IMG/VR virus record: IMGVR_UViG_2695420699_000018
Location: 1 to 22,879 of that record
Strand: one strand, 5' to 3'
DNA length: 22,879 bases
From: a virus
Taxonomy: Duplodnaviria > Heunggongvirae > Uroviricota > Caudoviricetes
In this document: positions 3,278 through 21,511 of the stretch, piece after piece
Layout: every line of letters starts with the position of its first letter
Position numbering within the stretch: the stretch's first letter is position 1
Made by a program: the position numbers and the translations under genes
The notes under the pieces: model-generated
The model's input: the letters and a program-made list of their open reading frames with translations, nothing else
The model's database searches: none
What the model was told of the DNA's origin: nothing

Positions 3278-3628
3278 TCACTTGAGCCGCTCGCGCGCGG
3301 TCTTCGCTGCGTGACACGACCGGCACAGGCTCTCAAGGTTGCTGTCTTCATCAGTACCGCCGTGGGCCTTCGCCTTGATGTGGTCAACGGTTGTGGCTGC
3401 GACAGCACGTCCAGTACGCAGGCAGTTCTGACACAGATGATTATCACGCTTCAGGATGCGGGCGCGTTTGATATCCCACTTGCTGCCGTAGCCACGCTCA
3501 TGGCGACTCTTACCCTGCTGATGCTGCTGCCAGCCCTCATTGCGATGCTGCTCACAGTAGCCTGAACGGTCCGTAGTCGTGCCAGGACAACCACGTTTGC
3601 GACATGCGCGGGGTATTAAAGTTGGCAT
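3278..3628 (-). CDS. HNH endonuclease (phage-associated), copy 2
   Basis: MPTLIPRACRKRGCPGTTTDRSGYCEQH… with HNH motif VDHIKAKAHGGTDEDSNLESLCRSCHAAKT. Homologous to but clearly diverged from the 537..887 copy. Confidence 0.85.
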   Translation of the reverse strand: MPTLIPRACRKRGCPGTTTDRSGYCEQHRNEGWQQHQQGKSRHERGYGSKWDIKRARILKRDNHLCQNCLRTGRAVAATTVDHIKAKAHGGTDEDSNLESLCRSCHAAKTARERLK

Positions 3629-3730: not shown

Positions 3731-4294
3731 CTACCCAAATCGAATAGCGCCACCCAACATTTCATTTTTGATTTTTGCCCTCGAATTTATCCTCTGGCAT
3801 ACATCATTATTATCCTTCATCCGCTCAACCCACTTAACTACCGCATCGCAGATATCATTAGATAAATTAATAACACTTAACTGAAGCACACCGTTAAACA
3901 TATTCATGTGCGCAGAAGAGTGCGTAAGTTGAATTTTTTGTAACTTAGTACTATCAGATGCCTCATGCAAAAATGCATTTCTTAAAGCCCAGTAGCTTTC
4001 ATGGTCAAAGCTTACCAATGGTTTTTTTGTTTTTAAATCATCGATTAAGTATTGAGGCATTTTATCTAATTGCTCGGGAAAGTTAGCCAAAAACGTCTCA
4101 TAAAGATTATCTGCAAAATATTTATCCTTAAGGTTATCCTTAAACCATCTTTTTGCTCTTGGCCCGTTCCGCTCTTCAGGAGTTTCAAGTTTCCCACATA
4201 TATCAGGAAGAGATAAGGCAATAAACAATGCAGCCTCATAATTTTCATCTAATAAAGATTTTCTTACTGACTCAACAAATTCAAGCATTTGCAT
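3731..4294 (-). CDS. Hypothetical 187-aa protein, AT-rich singleton (moron); possible HEPN-like R-x4-H motif
   Basis: Clean ORF with GGGGGAG SD before the ATG. GC content drops sharply relative to flanks. Contains LRNAFLHE (R-x4-H) in the central region. Bounded by the terminator at 3640..3669 and an 8-bp-arm hairpin at 4358..4375. Family not recognised. Confidence 0.6.
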   Translation of the reverse strand: MQMLEFVESVRKSLLDENYEAALFIALSLPDICGKLETPEERNGPRAKRWFKDNLKDKYFADNLYETFLANFPEQLDKMPQYLIDDLKTKKPLVSFDHESYWALRNAFLHEASDSTKLQKIQLTHSSAHMNMFNGVLQLSVINLSNDICDAVVKWVERMKDNNDVCQRINSRAKIKNEMLGGAIRFG

Positions 4295-12036: not shown

Positions 12037-12257
12037 GCAGCACCTCCGAGATGCTTCATGTTTTTTCCGGAGCGAAAGGCTATAAGCGGCATACTGACGC
12101 GGTAACTACGGCCCAGCGGTTCACAAATCACCTTCTGACATTCACGGTCAACCAGGCTAACACGTAGAACATGCCCTGCAGGTGTGGTGTACCACTGACC
12201 CGGACGAGGACAACGGAAAGTCTGATTGGTAAACCGTTTGAAAATATTCCGGATCAT
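12033..12257 (-). CDS. Hypothetical 74-aa protein, translationally coupled between the Rha-domain and O-like genes
   Basis: ATGA overlaps at both ends (12254/12257 and 12033/12036). No recognised family. Confidence 0.4.
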   Translation of the reverse strand: MIRNIFKRFTNQTFRCPRPGQWYTTPAGHVLRVSLVDRECQKVICEPLGRSYRVSMPLIAFRSGKNMKHLGGAA

Positions 12258-13405
12258 TTGCGCCCCCTTACCTCTGAAGGGTTCAGCGACAAATTTATGA
12301 GGCAGGCCAGTGCCGAAGCATCATTAATATAGTCATACAAGCTAACAGCCAGCGGAGATTCGGCTTTTGCCAACATAGGATAAAGCTGCTGCAGCCAGAC
12401 CTGATGAATTGATGAAATGTAGGAATAGAGAACGCTGGCGTTATGTGCAACGTCGCTCAGTACAGAGGGATTTGAAAGCTGTTTCTCCATCTGGTTAAAG
12501 GCATTGATGTATGCCTCTTTGAACTGGGCAGCACGTTTACCCGTGAAACCCATAGCAAGAAACGCAAAGCCGTCGCGGGTTATTTGGTAGCAAGGAAGTT
12601 TGCGACCTGTGCAATCAGTGTAATCACTCACCGAAAAATTGCGGGCAGTGAATGATGCTGAGCATTCAAGCGTGCGGATCTTTTTCAGTACATCGTCATG
12701 ACGTTTGGAGAAGAAGTTGGCAACAGCCAGGGATGAAGTAACAGCCTGACCATCAACGATGGCAATTTCAGGTTGAGTGAGGGTTGGGATCGTAGCCATG
12801 ATGGCAGCCTCTTTGGTGATTTTTAATAACTCACCACCAAGGCTTTCCACGACCTTATTGGTGGTGAGACGTACAGGGGTGGAAATACCGGTCACCAAAG
12901 AACCCGGCCCAACCGAAGTTGGCCCTGCACGCCCCACCATAATTTGGGCGTAATGCTGCTCATGACACAAAAAAACCGCAAGAGCGCGGTTGTGCGCTTT
13001 GGTGAATTCCGGGTTTCCACGCCCGGCACCCGTTTTATAAGGTGCCTGAACAGTGTAACGTCCCGGAATGGCAGAATCAATGTGCTGGTGGTCCTTCACA
13101 CTCAACAAAATCACGCCTGAATTTCCACAAAGGACTAAAGCACTCATGCGGGTAGTCTTTGCGAAGATAGATAACGCGCTGTGTTTCTGGTTCCCAACGA
13201 ATAACATGGACATAAAGCCCTCTTCCGTCACGAAACCAGCGGTTAAGTTCCTGCACAACTCGCCCCCCACAGTCAGGTAAAGTTCTCTGTGGTTACTTAC
13301 AGCCAGGTGATTTGGTAATCTGCATTCATGCCGTAACAACAGGTGTTCAGCGACACTGACCACCAGCTGTTGCGACAAACGGTTATTTGCCGTTAAACTG
13401 TTCAT
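12254..13405 (-). CDS. Rha-family phage regulatory protein with an uncharacterised about 200-aa N-terminal extension
   Basis: C-terminal half has the Phage_pRha-like core (…FFSKRHDDVLKKIRTLE…YQITRDGFAFLAMGFTGKRAAQFKEAYINAF). The frame is open for about 600 nt upstream and its ATG at 13405 makes an ATGA overlap with the preceding gene. An internal ATG at 12799 with strong AAAGAGG SD is an alternative start for a 182-aa Rha-only product. Confidence 0.5.
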   Translation of the reverse strand: MNSLTANNRLSQQLVVSVAEHLLLRHECRLPNHLAVSNHRELYLTVGGELCRNLTAGFVTEEGFMSMLFVGNQKHSALSIFAKTTRMSALVLCGNSGVILLSVKDHQHIDSAIPGRYTVQAPYKTGAGRGNPEFTKAHNRALAVFLCHEQHYAQIMVGRAGPTSVGPGSLVTGISTPVRLTTNKVVESLGGELLKITKEAAIMATIPTLTQPEIAIVDGQAVTSSLAVANFFSKRHDDVLKKIRTLECSASFTARNFSVSDYTDCTGRKLPCYQITRDGFAFLAMGFTGKRAAQFKEAYINAFNQMEKQLSNPSVLSDVAHNASVLYSYISSIHQVWLQQLYPMLAKAESPLAVSLYDYINDASALACLINLSLNPSEVRGRK

Positions 13406-13987: not shown

Positions 13988-14251
13988 TTACGCAGCTGAA
14001 CCGCTAACTTTTGAATAGCACTCAGGTAATCCATCATTTGGATTGGGGTAAATATCAGGACGCAGTTCATGAGGGGTCACGGACCAGTTTCCCAACTCAC
14101 AAAGTTGTAAAACCCGTTCTGACGGGACTTGATTGTTAATTACCCAATTAGCGACGGATTGAGTGGACTTAAAACCAAAGCGACGGGCTACTTCAGATAA
14201 AGATTTTCCCGCAGCTTTTACTGCTTTCTCTGTGTAGTTTTGAGATGACAT
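13988..14251 (-). CDS. Cro-like HTH regulator (YdaS/Cro family)
   Basis: HTH segment (SLSEVARRFGFKSTQSVANWV). Divergent from the CI-like gene across an operator-rich intergenic region. AGGAGA SD. Confidence 0.7.
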   Translation of the reverse strand: MSSQNYTEKAVKAAGKSLSEVARRFGFKSTQSVANWVINNQVPSERVLQLCELGNWSVTPHELRPDIYPNPNDGLPECYSKVSGSAA

Positions 14252-14260
14252 ACCTTTCTC

Positions 14261-14367
14261 CTCTGAAATTCAGAGGGATAATGCTACTTAAAATAGCAAA
14301 ATGCAACTACTTAAAATAGAAATGACTAGCGTATGTGATGTGAGTAATCTTCTACCTATGGTAGAAG
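14261..14367. promoter_or_regulatory. Immunity-region operator cluster (OR-like)
   Basis: Palindrome CTCTGAA-A-TTCAGAG at 14261..14275; two 13-bp direct repeats CTACTTAAAATAG at 14284..14296 and 14307..14319; palindrome CTTCTACC-TAT-GGTAGAAG at 14349..14367 overlapping the proposed cI ATG. Shared half-site theme CTAC…GTAG. Confidence 0.6.
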
Positions 14368-15062
14368 AACAGAAGTATCCAGATTTCGCCAAGAGACTAA
14401 ACGAGCTAATGACAAACAAGGGAATTTCTGTCACCCAACTCAAAAGTCTTGTGGGCGTTACATATGAAATGGCGCGGCGATACACAATCGGCGCTGCGAA
14501 GCCTCGTGCCTCTGTCATGAATAAACTTGCATTGGCTCTGGGGGTATCAGCTTCATATTTAGAATATGGTGTTGGCGAGAGAGAAGGATGTAAGGAAATG
14601 ACAAGCATCCCCAATCCAACAAAACCCGATGTATACAGGATAGAAGTTTTGGATCTTAGCGTTAGCGCGGGACCTGGGACCTATATGCTTTCAGACTATG
14701 TTGATGTGCTCTACGCCATTGAGTTCACAACAGAACATGCCCGTTCTCTTTTCGGCAACCGTTCTCAGGATGATATTAAGGTTATGACTGTAAATGGCGA
14801 TAGTATGTCCCCTACTCTCGTTTCCGGAGACCGACTGTTTGTCGACATTTCTGTTCGTCACTTCCAGACTGATGGAGTTTACTCTTTCGTTTACGGTAAG
14901 ACTTTTCATGTTAAACGTCTTCAAATGCAAGGTGACAAGCTAGCCGTTCTTTCGGATAACCCCGCCTATGAGAAATGGTACATCGATGAAAAATCACAGG
15001 ATCAGCTTTATGTAATGGGCAAGGCGTTGATTCACGAATCTATAAAATACAACCGATTGTAA
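14358..15062 (+). CDS. CI-like prophage repressor (N-terminal HTH plus C-terminal S24 LexA-like peptidase domain)
   Basis: HTH (…FAKRLNELMTNKGISVTQLKSLVGVTYEMARRY…) and S24 motifs (GDSMSPT active-site Ser; Lys in …FHVKRL…). Track start at 14301 lies inside operator repeats; the Met at 14358 (MVEEQKYPDF…) is preferred, possibly leaderless as for lambda cI. Confidence 0.85.
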   Translation: MVEEQKYPDFAKRLNELMTNKGISVTQLKSLVGVTYEMARRYTIGAAKPRASVMNKLALALGVSASYLEYGVGEREGCKEMTSIPNPTKPDVYRIEVLDLSVSAGPGTYMLSDYVDVLYAIEFTTEHARSLFGNRSQDDIKVMTVNGDSMSPTLVSGDRLFVDISVRHFQTDGVYSFVYGKTFHVKRLQMQGDKLAVLSDNPAYEKWYIDEKSQDQLYVMGKALIHESIKYNRL

Positions 15063-15106
15063 AACTCAATCCTTTCAGGATTAAAAGATCTAAAAGGATA
15101 ATAATA

Positions 15107-15469
15107 ATGAAATCTGAACTATTTCATAGCGAAGCAAATTCAGAAATTATCACTGCAGATGAGTTTATTGATTTCATAAACTCTTTCAAAAAGCCTTTAA
15201 TTTGCCAAATTTGCGGAAATCAATCATGGAGTGTAGTCGGTACTCTAGAACTTGAAGTTGAAGACAATCAGCCAAAACATCACGTAATCGAAGTTCTCAG
15301 CTATGCCCAATACAAACCTGAAACTGATAGCGCTATAAATTATCCTGGTGGTATGCCGCTGTTTCGAATCACCTGTGATCACTGTGCACATGTACTTCTT
15401 TTTTCTTATAAAAAAGCTAGATCATTGATCCAAAAAAGAAAAAATGAAAAAGAAGAGGATGGAAAATGA
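15107..15469 (+). CDS. Hypothetical zinc-ribbon-like protein (two CxxC pairs, basic C-terminal tail), first gene of an AT-rich module downstream of cI
   Basis: CQIC (about aa 33) and CDHC (about aa 91); tail KKARSLIQKRKNEKEEDGK. AAGGA SD. Strong AT bias. Same strand as cI and immediately downstream of it. Confidence 0.6.
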   Translation: MKSELFHSEANSEIITADEFIDFINSFKKPLICQICGNQSWSVVGTLELEVEDNQPKHHVIEVLSYAQYKPETDSAINYPGGMPLFRITCDHCAHVLLFSYKKARSLIQKRKNEKEEDGK

Positions 15470-16098
15470 CGCGACCTTATCTCAGAGCAGTACCAAACTG
15501 TGGATCTGGTATTGATAAATGTGACCTTTACCCCAATGTTAAGAACAGGCTGCGCGTCGGTATAGAAGAAATGTATACTGATTTTATCGAATCCGCAGAT
15601 GAAACTTACAAAACTGATGGGGGAAATAAAATGTCATCAGTTAGTCGAGAAGAAATTCAAGCACTTTTAGCTGCCAATAAAGCAGAAATGGAGTCCATTG
15701 CATCCTCTATTAGAGTTGAAATGGCTTTATCTCGCGAGAACACAAACGTTCAGCTAGCATCTCTAAATTCAGCCATCAATTCTATCTCTTCGAAAATCGA
15801 AGGCAAAATGGACAGTGTTGACGGGGATGTGAAGGCCATCAATGGTAGATTCGAAGGTATACAAGGCCAAATTACTGGAATAAATACAGCCATTAGTGGT
15901 ATTCAATCTGGAATTTCTACCAGACTTGCTATTTTTGGAGTTATCATTGCGGTCATAGTTGCATTACCTAGCATAATTTCTGCTTTTAAAGATACTTCGC
16001 CAGTAGTTCAACCAGTTACACAACAACCAAGTGTTAAACATCTCAACCAAGAACCAATTACTCCACAAGTATTACCTCCGCAGGGAAAAGCAAACTAA
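15466..16098 (+). CDS. Hypothetical coiled-coil protein with a single C-terminal TM anchor and P/Q-rich tail, second gene of the cI-adjacent module
   Basis: ATGA overlap with the upstream gene (15466..15469). Heptad-like S/I/A/N/G-rich central region; hydrophobic helix LAIFGVIIAVIVALPSIISAF; tail …PVVQPVTQQPSVKHLNQEPITPQVLPPQGKAN. Alternative internal start at 15634 (MSSVSREE…). Confidence 0.55.
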   Translation: MTRPYLRAVPNCGSGIDKCDLYPNVKNRLRVGIEEMYTDFIESADETYKTDGGNKMSSVSREEIQALLAANKAEMESIASSIRVEMALSRENTNVQLASLNSAINSISSKIEGKMDSVDGDVKAINGRFEGIQGQITGINTAISGIQSGISTRLAIFGVIIAVIVALPSIISAFKDTSPVVQPVTQQPSVKHLNQEPITPQVLPPQGKAN

Positions 16099-16121
16099 AC
16101 CGGCTTTATGCCGGTTTTTTT
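16098..16121 (+). terminator. Intrinsic terminator closing the cI-proximal operon
   Basis: AACCGGC-tttat-GCCGGTT followed by TTTTTTT directly after the stop codon at 16096..16098. Confidence 0.8.
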
Positions 16122-16225: not shown

Positions 16226-16262
16226 CTACTTTTAGTTGTTGATTTTTGCTACTTTTGGTAGC
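16226..16262. promoter_or_regulatory. OL-like operator pair upstream of the early-left genes
   Basis: CTACTTTTAGTTG (16226..16238) and the palindrome GCTAC-TTTTG-GTAGC (16248..16262) echo the CTAC…GTAG half-sites of the cro/cI operator cluster. Confidence 0.5.
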
Positions 16263-16368
16263 AGAATTATTTTAACGACAACGAACAGGCAGGACGCCCA
16301 CGAAGTAGCCGCCGGTGGCGTATGAATGACCGGATGATTCGTTAAATACTATGTGTAAGAGAGCGCAA

Positions 16369-16572
16369 ATGAACCGTTATTTCACATGTTCGTTTTGTGG
16401 CGCAAACGAGCTGCAGGCAAAAAAAATCATCGCCAAAGGCGGAAAAGATGAAGTTGCTATCTGCTCTGAGTGCGTAGTCTTGTGTGTCGGGGCATTAATT
16501 AATATCAGCACAACTATTCAGTTCACACCAAATGAGAATGCGCCTTTAGATGCGCGGAAATCTGGAGGTTAA
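16369..16572 (+). CDS. Stand-alone ClpX-type C4 zinc-finger (ZBD-like) protein
   Basis: FTCSFCGANELQAKKIIAKGGKDEVAICSECVVLCVGAL aligns with the ClpX N-terminal zinc-binding domain (recalled [36 protein letters not shown]). Track ORF starts at 16351; the ATG at 16369 (MNRYFTCSFCG…) is equally plausible. Confidence 0.65.
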   Translation: MNRYFTCSFCGANELQAKKIIAKGGKDEVAICSECVVLCVGALINISTTIQFTPNENAPLDARKSGG

Positions 16573-20031: not shown

Positions 20032-20381
20032 TGGAGCCATACAGCCTCACACTCGATGAGGCCTGTCATTTTCTCAAGATATCCAGACCGACTGCCATTA
20101 ACTGGATACGCACAGGGCGTCTTCAGGCAACACGCAAAGATCCCACTAAGAATAAATCTCCTTACCTCACAACACGACAAGCCTGCATTGCGGCTCTTCA
20201 GTCTCCGCTGCATACTGTCCAGGTGAGCGCGGGTGATGGCATAACAGAGGAAAGAAAATGTCACTCTTCCGCAGAGGTGAAATATGGTACGCCAGTTTCA
20301 CATTGCCGAACGGTAAAAGATTTAAACAGTCTCTTGGAACAAAGGACAAAAGGCAGGCGACAGAACTCCATGACAAGCTAA
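20031..20381 (+). CDS. xis: Excisionase-like / AlpA-type HTH protein (putative Xis)
   Basis: [37 protein letters not shown]… is AlpA/Xis-like. GAGGTGA SD. Immediately upstream of the integrase; the frame runs 124 nt into it, so the 3' end is uncertain. Confidence 0.5.
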
Positions 20382-21421
20382 AGGCTGAAGCATGGCGGGT
20401 CAGCAAACTTGGTGAAATACCTGATATAACGTTCGAGGAAGCGTGTGTCAGGTGGCTTGAAGAGAAAGCACATAAAAAATCACTGGACGATGACAAAAGC
20501 CGGATCGGATTCTGGCTTCAACATTTCGCAGGAATGCAACTAAGAGACATTACTGAATCAAAAATTTATTCAGCAATGCAGAAAATGACGAACCGGCGTC
20601 ATGAGGAAAACTGGAAACTCAGGGCAGAAGCATGCAGAAAAAAAGGGAAACCTGTTCCAGAATACACGCCAAAACCAGCGTCCGTTGCAACGAAGGCTAC
20701 GCATCTTTCATTTATAAAGGCCCTACTAAGAGCCGCAGAGCGTGAATGGAAAATGCTGGATAAGGCACCAATTATTAAAGTGCCTCAACCAAAGAATAAA
20801 CGGATCCGCTGGCTGGAGCCCCATGAAGCACAAAGGCTGATTGATGAATGTCCGGAGCCATTAAAGTCTGTTGTTGAATTTGCACTGGCAACAGGCTTAA
20901 GACGCTCGAACATCATCAACCTTGAATGGCAACAAATAGATATGCAGCGCCGGGTGGCATGGATAAACCCGGAAGAGAGTAAATCAAACCGCGCAATTGG
21001 CGTTGCGCTGAATGATACTGCATGTCGCGTATTGAAAAAACAAATCGGGAATCATCACCGTTGGGTATTTGTGTACAAGGAAAGCTGTACCAAACCAGAC
21101 GGAACGAAAGCGCCAACAGTAAGGAAGATGCGGTATGACGCAAACACAGCCTGGAAAGCGGCGCTGAGACGGGCTGGTATTGATGATTTCAGATTTCACG
21201 ACTTGAGACACACCTGGGCAAGTTGGCTGGTTCAAGCCGGAGTCCCGTTGTCAGTGTTACAGGAAATGGGAGGCTGGGAGTCTATCGAAATGGTTCGTCG
21301 ATATGCTCACCTTGCACCTAATCACCTTACCGAACACGCACGGCAAATAGACTCGATCCTGAACCCATCGGTCCCAAATTTGTCCCAGTCAAAAAATAAG
21401 GAAGGTACTAATGATGTGTAA
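20258..21421 (+). CDS. int: Tyrosine-type site-specific integrase (phage integrase family)
   Basis: C-terminal catalytic region …[42 protein letters not shown]… Stop codon 15 bp from the 3' end of the tRNA. Confidence 0.95.
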
Positions 21422-21435
21422 CTTATTGATTTAAA

Positions 21436-21511
21436 TGGTGCCGATAATAGGAGTCGAACCTACGACCTTCGCATTACGAATGCGCTGCTCTACCAACTGA
21501 GCTATATCGGC
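21436..21511 (-). tRNA. thrW: tRNA-Thr (anticodon CGU)
   Basis: Reverse complement of 21436..21511 is GCCGATATAGCTCAGTTGGTAGAGCAGCGCATTCGTAATGCGAAGGTCGTAGGTTCGACTCCTATTATCGGCACCA: 76 nt, cloverleaf-compatible, anticodon loop TTCGTAA, CCA end. Adjacent to proA as for thrW in E. coli. Confidence 0.95.

Follow-up and report, generated by a model that had tools for sequence, protein, structure and literature searches.

A modular gene pair with a predicted tail-anchored coiled-coil protein occupies the rexAB position of lambdoid prophages

Phage lambda's RexAB system is still incompletely understood after 60 years. RexA-type proteins carry a DUF4747 domain and RexB-type proteins have four transmembrane (TM) helices (PMC6426596), and the interval from cI to N in which rexAB lies is a mosaic hot spot of lysogen-expressed accessory genes, another example being the abortive-infection gene bstA (PMC7067206). 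Here we analysed a stretch of 22,879 nucleotides (nt; IMG/VR record IMGVR_UViG_2695420699_000018, hereafter the window), which is an Escherichia coli lambdoid prophage of the e14/CPS-53 type with homologues of ymfL, yfdP, yfdQ and yfdR, and in which two AT-rich genes, orfA and orfB, directly follow the cI-type repressor gene. Protein A has the features of a zinc ribbon, and protein B is best read, from its sequence and a structure model, as an inner-membrane protein that is tail-anchored and has its coiled coil in the cytoplasm. A preliminary description of this DNA, made before any database search, had taken the two genes for a cargo module and for candidates for exclusion or abortive infection. 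Beyond this, we find that the pair is one member of a large modular family, in which the zinc-ribbon protein is one of several interchangeable partners of B, and that orfB probably yields two isoforms. With a probability of about 0.4, we read A/B as a lysogen-expressed, membrane-acting two-component module of the immunity region that would most likely protect the lysogen from other phages, as a functional analogue rather than a homologue of RexAB.

The closest described system by position and proposed function is RexAB itself, which in lambda lysogens is co-transcribed with cI and excludes T4 rII-type phages. Like lambda rexAB, and like the genes for the RexAB-like gp30 and gp31 of Sbash, orfA and orfB are two genes that follow the repressor gene directly, inside the immunity region and upstream of OL/PL, with a terminator before OL/PL; the order cI, orfA, orfB, terminator, OL-like operators is that of lambda cI-rexA-rexB-terminator-OL, and in both cases a soluble protein is paired with a membrane protein. 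The two pairs nevertheless have no sequence relationship, and A (120 amino acids, aa) and B (210 aa) are far smaller than their lambda counterparts. A Pfam scan of A gave no DUF4747, and B has one C-terminal hydrophobic segment as against the four TM helices of RexB. Judged by sequence, A/B is not a RexAB homologue. BstA of the Salmonella prophage BTP1 and other single-gene abortive-infection morons fill the same niche and are transcribed from the repressor promoter (PMC7067206), but BstA is a single large DNA-binding protein, unrelated to A/B in sequence and architecture.

The preliminary description had assigned the pair to the rexAB slot directly downstream of cI and had noted two same-strand open reading frames (ORFs) joined by an ATGA overlap and closed by a strong terminator, all of which are found at the coordinates it gave (Table 1). 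Its assignment holds: the pair has cI on one side and the OL-like operators on the other, and a strong terminator follows orfB but none follows cI. The hairpin that had been noted just after cI is present, yet it was rejected as a terminator (folding free energy, dG, -9.3 kcal/mol; z score, z, -1.9; no U-run). Since this hairpin is weak and lacks a U-run, transcription of cI is expected to read through into orfA and orfB. The operator-like elements on either side of the region are copies of a 13-bp repeat, CTACTTNNNNTAG, with nine matches in the window against 2.6 expected; none of 100 shuffles reached nine. The AT-richness of both genes was likewise borne out, with a G+C content (GC) of 0.350 for orfA and 0.395 for orfB, lower than in cI (0.432) and in the window as a whole (0.489), and GC at third codon positions (GC3) of 0.25 and 0.28 for orfA and orfB, respectively.

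Both are real genes under purifying selection. Ratios of non-synonymous to synonymous substitution (dN/dS), computed against Enterobacter cloacae orthologues (protein identity 88% for A and 82% for B), were 0.06 for orfA, 0.12 for orfB and 0.11 for cI; within orfB, the first 55 codons gave 0.22 as against 0.03 for the core.

The position after the repressor recurs across genomes. Of seven B homologues looked up in unselected assemblies, six (from Klebsiella, Yersinia, Salmonella, Kosakonia, Cedecea and Enterobacter) come immediately after a repressor gene and share its strand; the lambdoid prophages that carry them differ in their replication modules. The seventh, from Xenorhabdus, is a short form of 146 aa that follows an Arc/Arc/ORF6N immI-like region. 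Coliphages HK542 and HK244, both of lambda immunity, carry in this order PRM, a lambda-like cI, a 144-aa ORF, a B homologue, PL and N; here a B-family pair replaces rexAB beside a lambda-type cI. A survey of IMG/VR recovered 75 loci with 52 distinct B-like genes. In 50 of these, a same-strand ORF of 87-165 aa ends between -17 and +39 nt from the B start, and a repressor was detectable just upstream in at least 43, an underestimate because detection used a small BLAST reference set. Of 5,426 complete E. coli genomes, 9 have near-identical copies of the window type, 17 of the type found in E. coli CX12 and 51 of the HK542 type, all annotated as hypothetical. When the cassette was searched as nucleotides against sequenced phages no match was obtained; tblastn of A against the same phages also gave none, and B homologues there occur in HK542 and HK244 alone. 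No paper describing these families came to light in the literature on HK542/HK244, rex-slot cargo, tail-anchored anti-phage proteins and repressor-linked membrane proteins, although an earlier description is still possible.

The cassette also moves. Identical A and B proteins occur on prophage backbones that have diverged by ~5%, and at the window's locus in other E. coli strains a CX12-type A-like pair or a ParA-family gene lies between the same flanks. These data support the view that the A/B pair is mobile cargo, rich in AT, whose place can be taken by other cassettes, in agreement with the cargo module proposed in the preliminary description: its GC is low, its slot is shared with alternative cassettes and its position is conserved beyond the window phage, HK542 included. 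One such alternative, in E. coli EC11 (L002, 3933-5009) and also in ECOR29, is a single ParA-family gene of 358 aa between cI and the OL-like operators; the N-terminus of its product (residues 3-40 alone) matches the PADLOC candidate PDC-M28B (E 6e-9).

Protein A matches the profile of PHROG 4293 over its full length (E 1.7e-33, residues 3-118 of 120). Its two CxxC pairs, seen in the preliminary description, are C33xxC36 (nt 15203-15214) and C90xxC93 (15374-15385), and all four cysteines are invariant in 50 diverse relatives. This conservation of both knuckles across homologues is that of a zinc ribbon, with metal binding as a prediction; no specific Pfam zinc-ribbon family was matched at threshold. 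The N-terminal helix carries the motif ITxxxFxxF, and the C-terminal helix is charged. The tail had been called basic, and residues 101-120 are indeed net basic, but of mixed charge (8 K/R and 4 D/E). A hydropathy scan of A found no hydrophobic or TM segment, and a low-confidence model shows a small sheet between an N-terminal and a C-terminal helix. Scanning exhaustively with the A profile, HMMER returned 178 representatives at E <= 1e-3, so the A family is far larger than the handful of enterobacterial members would suggest; of the 150 matches listed out of these 178, nearly all are small (~65-180 aa, mostly 90-125 aa).

Protein B matches PHROG 5820, again over its full length (E 6.8e-69, residues 8-201 of 210). 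Its architecture is as had been described, with heptads, one hydrophobic helix and a P/Q-rich tail, and since it has no signal peptide and a single C-terminal TM helix we read it as tail-anchored. The N-terminal 55-60 residues are modelled without regular structure, at low confidence, and are followed by a cytoplasmic helix, S/T-R-x-E-L-x-A-x-L-x-x-N-K-A-E-V...M..EMA.WRE, which is the sole segment common to the entire B superfamily. In the Gly/Ile-rich repeats that come next, 7-residue indels distinguish family members, and close relatives carry the tail motif QPIIIQVPQ.

The preliminary description did not recognise the composition of the pair among described systems, and this stands: neither protein had a match at threshold in Pfam, NCBIfam, PADLOC-DB or PDB sequence profiles. 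For A, the count of Pfam families was 0 and PADLOC-DB 2.0, a library dating from 2023, gave no match; for B, the same library gave coiled-coil-level matches at chance level alone (PbeC, E 1.4e-3, 15 bits), and the partners in other B cassettes were likewise PADLOC-negative. Of the checks that had been proposed, profile searches placed both proteins in PHROG families of unknown function alone. Below threshold, B matched coiled-coil-plus-TM proteins repeatedly, namely Baculo_PEP_C, CCDC90-like proteins (PF07798, formerly DUF1640) and the head region of tripartite alpha-pore-forming toxins. With the CCDC90-like and XhlA-type proteins B shares its architecture, in which one TM helix at the C-terminus follows a cytoplasmic coiled coil, but the scores against PF07798 (14.7 bits for the window's B, 28.1 bits for the best relative) remain below the gathering cut-off of 33.5, and no role of either family at this locus is known. 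Similarly, the similarity to MakE (NCBIfam, E 1.2e-4, 21.2 bits against a cut-off of 360), SmhB (PDB, E 0.015) and AhlB (E 0.67) is weak but repeated, and spans the Gly/Ile-rich helices and the hydrophobic helix of B, which is half the size of these proteins and lacks their head/tail-domain fold; it is a lead alone. We take all of these sub-threshold matches as leads on architecture and not as family membership.

The gene 5' of orfB varies. Among the 52 B-like genes we distinguish at least three unrelated classes of partner: 17 have a phrog_5893-like partner (143-162 aa, no Cys; HK542 is of this class), 12 an L005-type partner (~100 aa), 3 an L012-type partner (~100 aa), 1 an L008-type partner and 5 a zinc-ribbon partner of the A type, while 12 partners (87-106 aa) were unmatched to the reference set and two B-like genes have no partner. 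By eye, an 'ITFxxH'-like motif is common to the L005-type, the L012-type and most unmatched partners, which may thus be a single class of ~90-110 aa. The N-terminal extension of B tracks the partner, reading LKVVGGSxFxAxFDNS with phrog_5893 partners and AVPNCGSGIDKxDLYPN with A. Conversely, a tail-anchored coiled-coil ORF follows A in all five A-family contexts checked (the E. coli window, E. coli CX12, Serratia, Edwardsiella and Enterobacter hormaechei), although it is not always the same one: the second gene belongs to phrog_5820 in the window and to phrog_3556 in CX12, Serratia and Edwardsiella, and in E. hormaechei it is a chimera, divergent beyond an initial B signature helix. The CX12-type cassette (L003, 3778-4477), which sits in the same slot, encodes an A-family zinc-ribbon protein of 115 aa (phrog_4293, E 1.1e-30) and a different tail-anchored coiled-coil protein of 126 aa (phrog_3556), which weakly matches XhlA-like 'hemolysin' PHROGs (E ~0.005) and whose N-terminus, MPTPxxNVVPF, is kept in the Serratia and Edwardsiella versions.

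A partner and an extension that co-vary in the manner of cognate pairs, in a compact operon with a stop/start overlap and a small soluble protein first, would also suit a toxin-antitoxin or addiction pair, in which a small membrane toxin, B, would have its antidote in A or another partner, and which would stabilise the prophage or its immunity region without defence being its primary role. We regard this as improbable: A and B have no similarity to known toxin-antitoxin families in Pfam, PADLOC or NCBIfam, and the existence of partnerless short B genes (Xenorhabdus L010; L065) is hard to square with an unneutralised toxin. More improbable still is a lysogenic-conversion factor that alters host physiology, whether through membrane stress tolerance or through a stationary-phase or ribosome-associated role like that of ElaB/YqjD. 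The tail-anchored coiled-coil architecture is common to ElaB/YqjD-type and CCDC90-like proteins, the latter being the sub-threshold PF07798 match of B, but the ElaB/DUF883 family itself was unmatched by A and B in Pfam, and the rapid shuffling of partners and extensions looks like an arms race and not like housekeeping.

Within orfB, an in-frame ATG preceded by a Shine-Dalgarno-like run (Table 1) is the predicted start of a short isoform of 155 aa. In all eight long B genes whose DNA was examined (the window, L004, L005, L008, L012, L013, L015 and L022), the SREE motif comes 3-4 codons after an ATG or GTG, ahead of which the ORF contains a Shine-Dalgarno-like run; this signature recurs in 39 of the 46 viral-contig B genes that carry the motif. 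Stand-alone short B genes begin exactly at this point, in Xenorhabdus (L010, 146 aa), in P0017 (154 aa) and in the second gene of E. hormaechei (L019). The 55 codons upstream of 15631 are nevertheless coding, as the frame is open (P ~0.02 by chance for the composition) and has the dN/dS of 0.22 given above. Because the internal start is conserved, short genes exist on their own and the extension is under selection, orfB probably yields two forms, the long one bearing the partner-matched extension and the short one lacking it. As the source of short B, a promoter-like site at 15605-15632 was weighed but rejected, since its -10 element overlaps the ATG and such sites occur in the region at chance level (7 found against 6.3 expected).

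Nested products have precedents in lambdoid phages. SieB of P22 and lambda has an in-frame internal product, Esc, and lambda S107 and S105 form a holin-antiholin pair; by analogy, B would likewise be a membrane-associated phage protein with a conserved in-frame internal start and two nested products. The starts in B are, however, 55 codons apart, and B was unmatched to the families in question: SieB was absent from the Pfam matches of B and A at E <= 0.1, as were the holin families. The resemblance of this dual-start design to holin/antiholin bears on a further explanation, that the pair serves the phage's own life cycle, either by modulating induction or the lysis-lysogeny decision from the membrane, or as an XhlA-like accessory of lysis timing. 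The tight linkage to repressors of many immunity types and the weak match of the CX12-type second gene to XhlA-like PHROGs speak for it. We give it little credence, as the cassette is dispensable and patchy, with a ParA-family gene or unrelated pairs in its place in near-identical prophages and rexAB there in lambda; the window's lysis genes sit elsewhere, a close relative of its prophage (L001) having holin, endolysin and spanin genes; and the terminator separates the cassette from the PL operon.

HK97 gp15 and P22 SieA are models for exclusion at the entry step, at the inner membrane. Applied to this pair, the TM helix and P/Q-rich tail of B would disturb DNA injection across the inner membrane and the host would survive, with A aiding the folding or insertion of B or regulating it. 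The predicted inner-membrane location and the conservation of the periplasmic tail motif among close relatives fit such a role, as does a position that matches that of other lysogen-expressed exclusion genes (PMC7067206). It appears unlikely all the same, as the TM helix and tail are freely swapped across the superfamily while the cytoplasmic helix is invariant, and as the variable, partner-linked elements are cytoplasmic, whereas the specificity of an entry blocker would be expected on the periplasmic side. Because the fast-evolving, swappable parts are cytoplasmic, we favour instead a design like that of abortive infection, with a variable cytoplasmic sensor on a conserved membrane effector.

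In the model that we propose, cI, orfA and orfB would be transcribed together from the repressor promoter, stopping at the terminator before OL, as the layout suggests. The N-terminal ~150 residues of B, as far as sequence and model indicate, would form an oligomerising cytoplasmic coiled coil, followed by the TM helix and a short periplasmic P/Q tail. Soluble A would dock on the variable N-terminal extension of long B as a specificity or sensor subunit, a step proposed because partner class co-varies with extension. Short B would lack this docking site, and the threshold for firing might be fixed by the ratio of long to short forms, in the manner of holin/antiholin or SieB/Esc. A superinfecting phage would then supply a trigger upon which B assemblies could rearrange and compromise the inner membrane, so that the infection would be aborted.

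Several points weigh against the protective, membrane-acting module. Neither A nor B is homologous to any known defence protein in PADLOC, and fold searches with the low-confidence models of A and B (for B, against BFVD alone) found nothing. The structure models have a mean predicted local distance difference test (pLDDT) score of 61, which is low confidence. B has no family-level match to the ClyA-type alpha-pore-forming toxins, its similarity to pore-formers being far below threshold, and one TM helix with a 34-residue tail would make a minimal effector. Moreover, what the whole superfamily conserves is the cytoplasmic helix and not the TM helix, so the target could be cytoplasmic instead of the membrane, and a gene pair beside the repressor could equally well serve the phage's own regulation. 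An exclusion or abortive-infection role is plausible by virtue of position, architecture and analogy. Taken to the level of the family, we tentatively suggest, on odds somewhat short of even, a large undescribed class of immunity-region defence modules, in which a conserved tail-anchored effector in long and short forms would be combined with swappable small cytoplasmic sensors that fit the matching B extension. This would be a mix-and-match form of abortive infection, unrelated to RexAB and replacing it in HK542, and its sensors, if the class is as suggested, would be of zinc-ribbon type, of beta-rich phrog_5893 type and of ~100-aa 'ITFxxH' type.

The surroundings of the cassette are those of a mosaic prophage, and the features of the immunity region are collected in Table 1. 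The start of cI is possibly 14358 rather than 14301, because the longer ORF includes operator-like repeats (14307 and 14352) and the Prokaryotic Genome Annotation Pipeline (PGAP) calls a version of 705 bp and 234 aa; the 253-aa call is probably wrong. Between the OL-like operators and an ORF with a ClpX-type zinc finger (16351-16572), the stretch 16267-16344 is a short element of very wide conservation: of the 1,435 E. coli genomes that match the locus query, most do so in this ~65-130 bp stretch alone. Its fold is unremarkable (z -1.45) and an Rfam scan of it gave no match; it is a possible nut/put-like site or promoter-proximal signal. On the other side of cI, Rfam identifies a C4 antisense RNA (83.6 bits; 12857-12944, minus strand) and isrK (67.9 bits; 12969-13045, minus strand), both within a mechanically called 383-aa ORF (12254-13405) that bears Ash and Rha domains. 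This region looks like a P1/P7-type, C4-controlled antirepressor unit, a second immunity layer, and the long ORF is probably over-called. At the right, a tyrosine integrase gene (20258-21421, plus strand) adjoins a tRNA-Thr(CGT) gene (21436-21511, minus strand), and the junction (20258-21511) is likely both the attachment site and the prophage's right end. An insertion-sequence-type transposase gene (1949-2662; HTH_21 and rve domains) with a possible upstream frame (1644-1952) lies in the window's GC-rich left part. A separate AT-rich island (GC ~0.35) holds a 187-aa ORF (3731-4294, minus strand), which adjoins an HNH endonuclease gene (3278-3628) and may be another cargo gene. The close relative L001 has a head module of the HK97 type.

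Table 1. Coordinates of the A/B cassette and of the immunity-region features around it, numbered from the first nucleotide of the window.
Feature	Position	Strand	Description
cro-like gene	13988-14251	-	divergent from cI
OR-like operator repeats CTACTTNNNNTAG	14284-14296, 14307-14319; 14352-14364 (one mismatch)		between cro-like gene and cI
cI-type repressor	14301-15062	+	253 aa as called; HTH_3 (PF01381, 2e-5) and Peptidase_S24 (PF00717, 2e-16); phrog_4, 3e-50
cI-orfA spacer	15063-15106	+	44 nt; weak hairpin 15068-15082 / 15069-15099; Shine-Dalgarno AAGGA 15094-15098
orfA	15107-15469	+	120 aa, predicted cytoplasmic; PHROG 4293; overlaps orfB start by ATGA (15466-15469)
orfB, long form	15466-16098	+	210 aa; PHROG 5820
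B N-terminal extension, aa 1-55	15466-15630	+	hypervariable across the family; co-varies with partner class; purifying selection
Internal Shine-Dalgarno GGGGGA (15619-15624) and ATG (15631)	15619-15633	+	predicted start of 155-aa short B isoform
B conserved cytoplasmic helix, aa 58-114	15637-15807	+	motif SREE-x-A-L-x-ANKAE...M..EMA..RE; model helix 61-114, pLDDT 80-87
B Gly/Ile-rich heptad repeats, aa 115-153	15808-15924	+	exact heptads VKAINGR/FEGIQGQ/ITGINTA/ISGIQSG
B single C-terminal TM helix, aa ~154-176	15925-15993	+	predicted; Kyte-Doolittle 19-residue maximum 2.73 at residue 154; model helix 149-174
B P/Q-rich tail, aa 177-210	15994-16098	+	34 residues, 38% P+Q; predicted periplasmic
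Intrinsic terminator closing the cI-A-B unit	stem 16097-16117 and T-run, to 16121	+	dG -12.8 kcal/mol, z -4.6; 0/200 shuffles fold as well
OL-like operator repeats CTACTTNNNNTAG	16226-16238, 16249-16261		far edge of immunity region

The A/B pair and its relatives define a second, unrelated occupant of the classic lysogen-expressed exclusion slot, widespread across Enterobacterales and with a grammar of its own, in which a repressor is followed by a swappable small partner and then by a predicted tail-anchored coiled-coil protein with nested starts. Since the family is widespread, modular and uncharacterised, and has a model phage in HK542, it is of more interest than a single orphan pair would be, and it is directly testable because this cultured phage of lambda immunity carries a B-family pair in place of rexAB. 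If the family is a defence system, it would provide a new type of effector and a natural example of sensor swapping.

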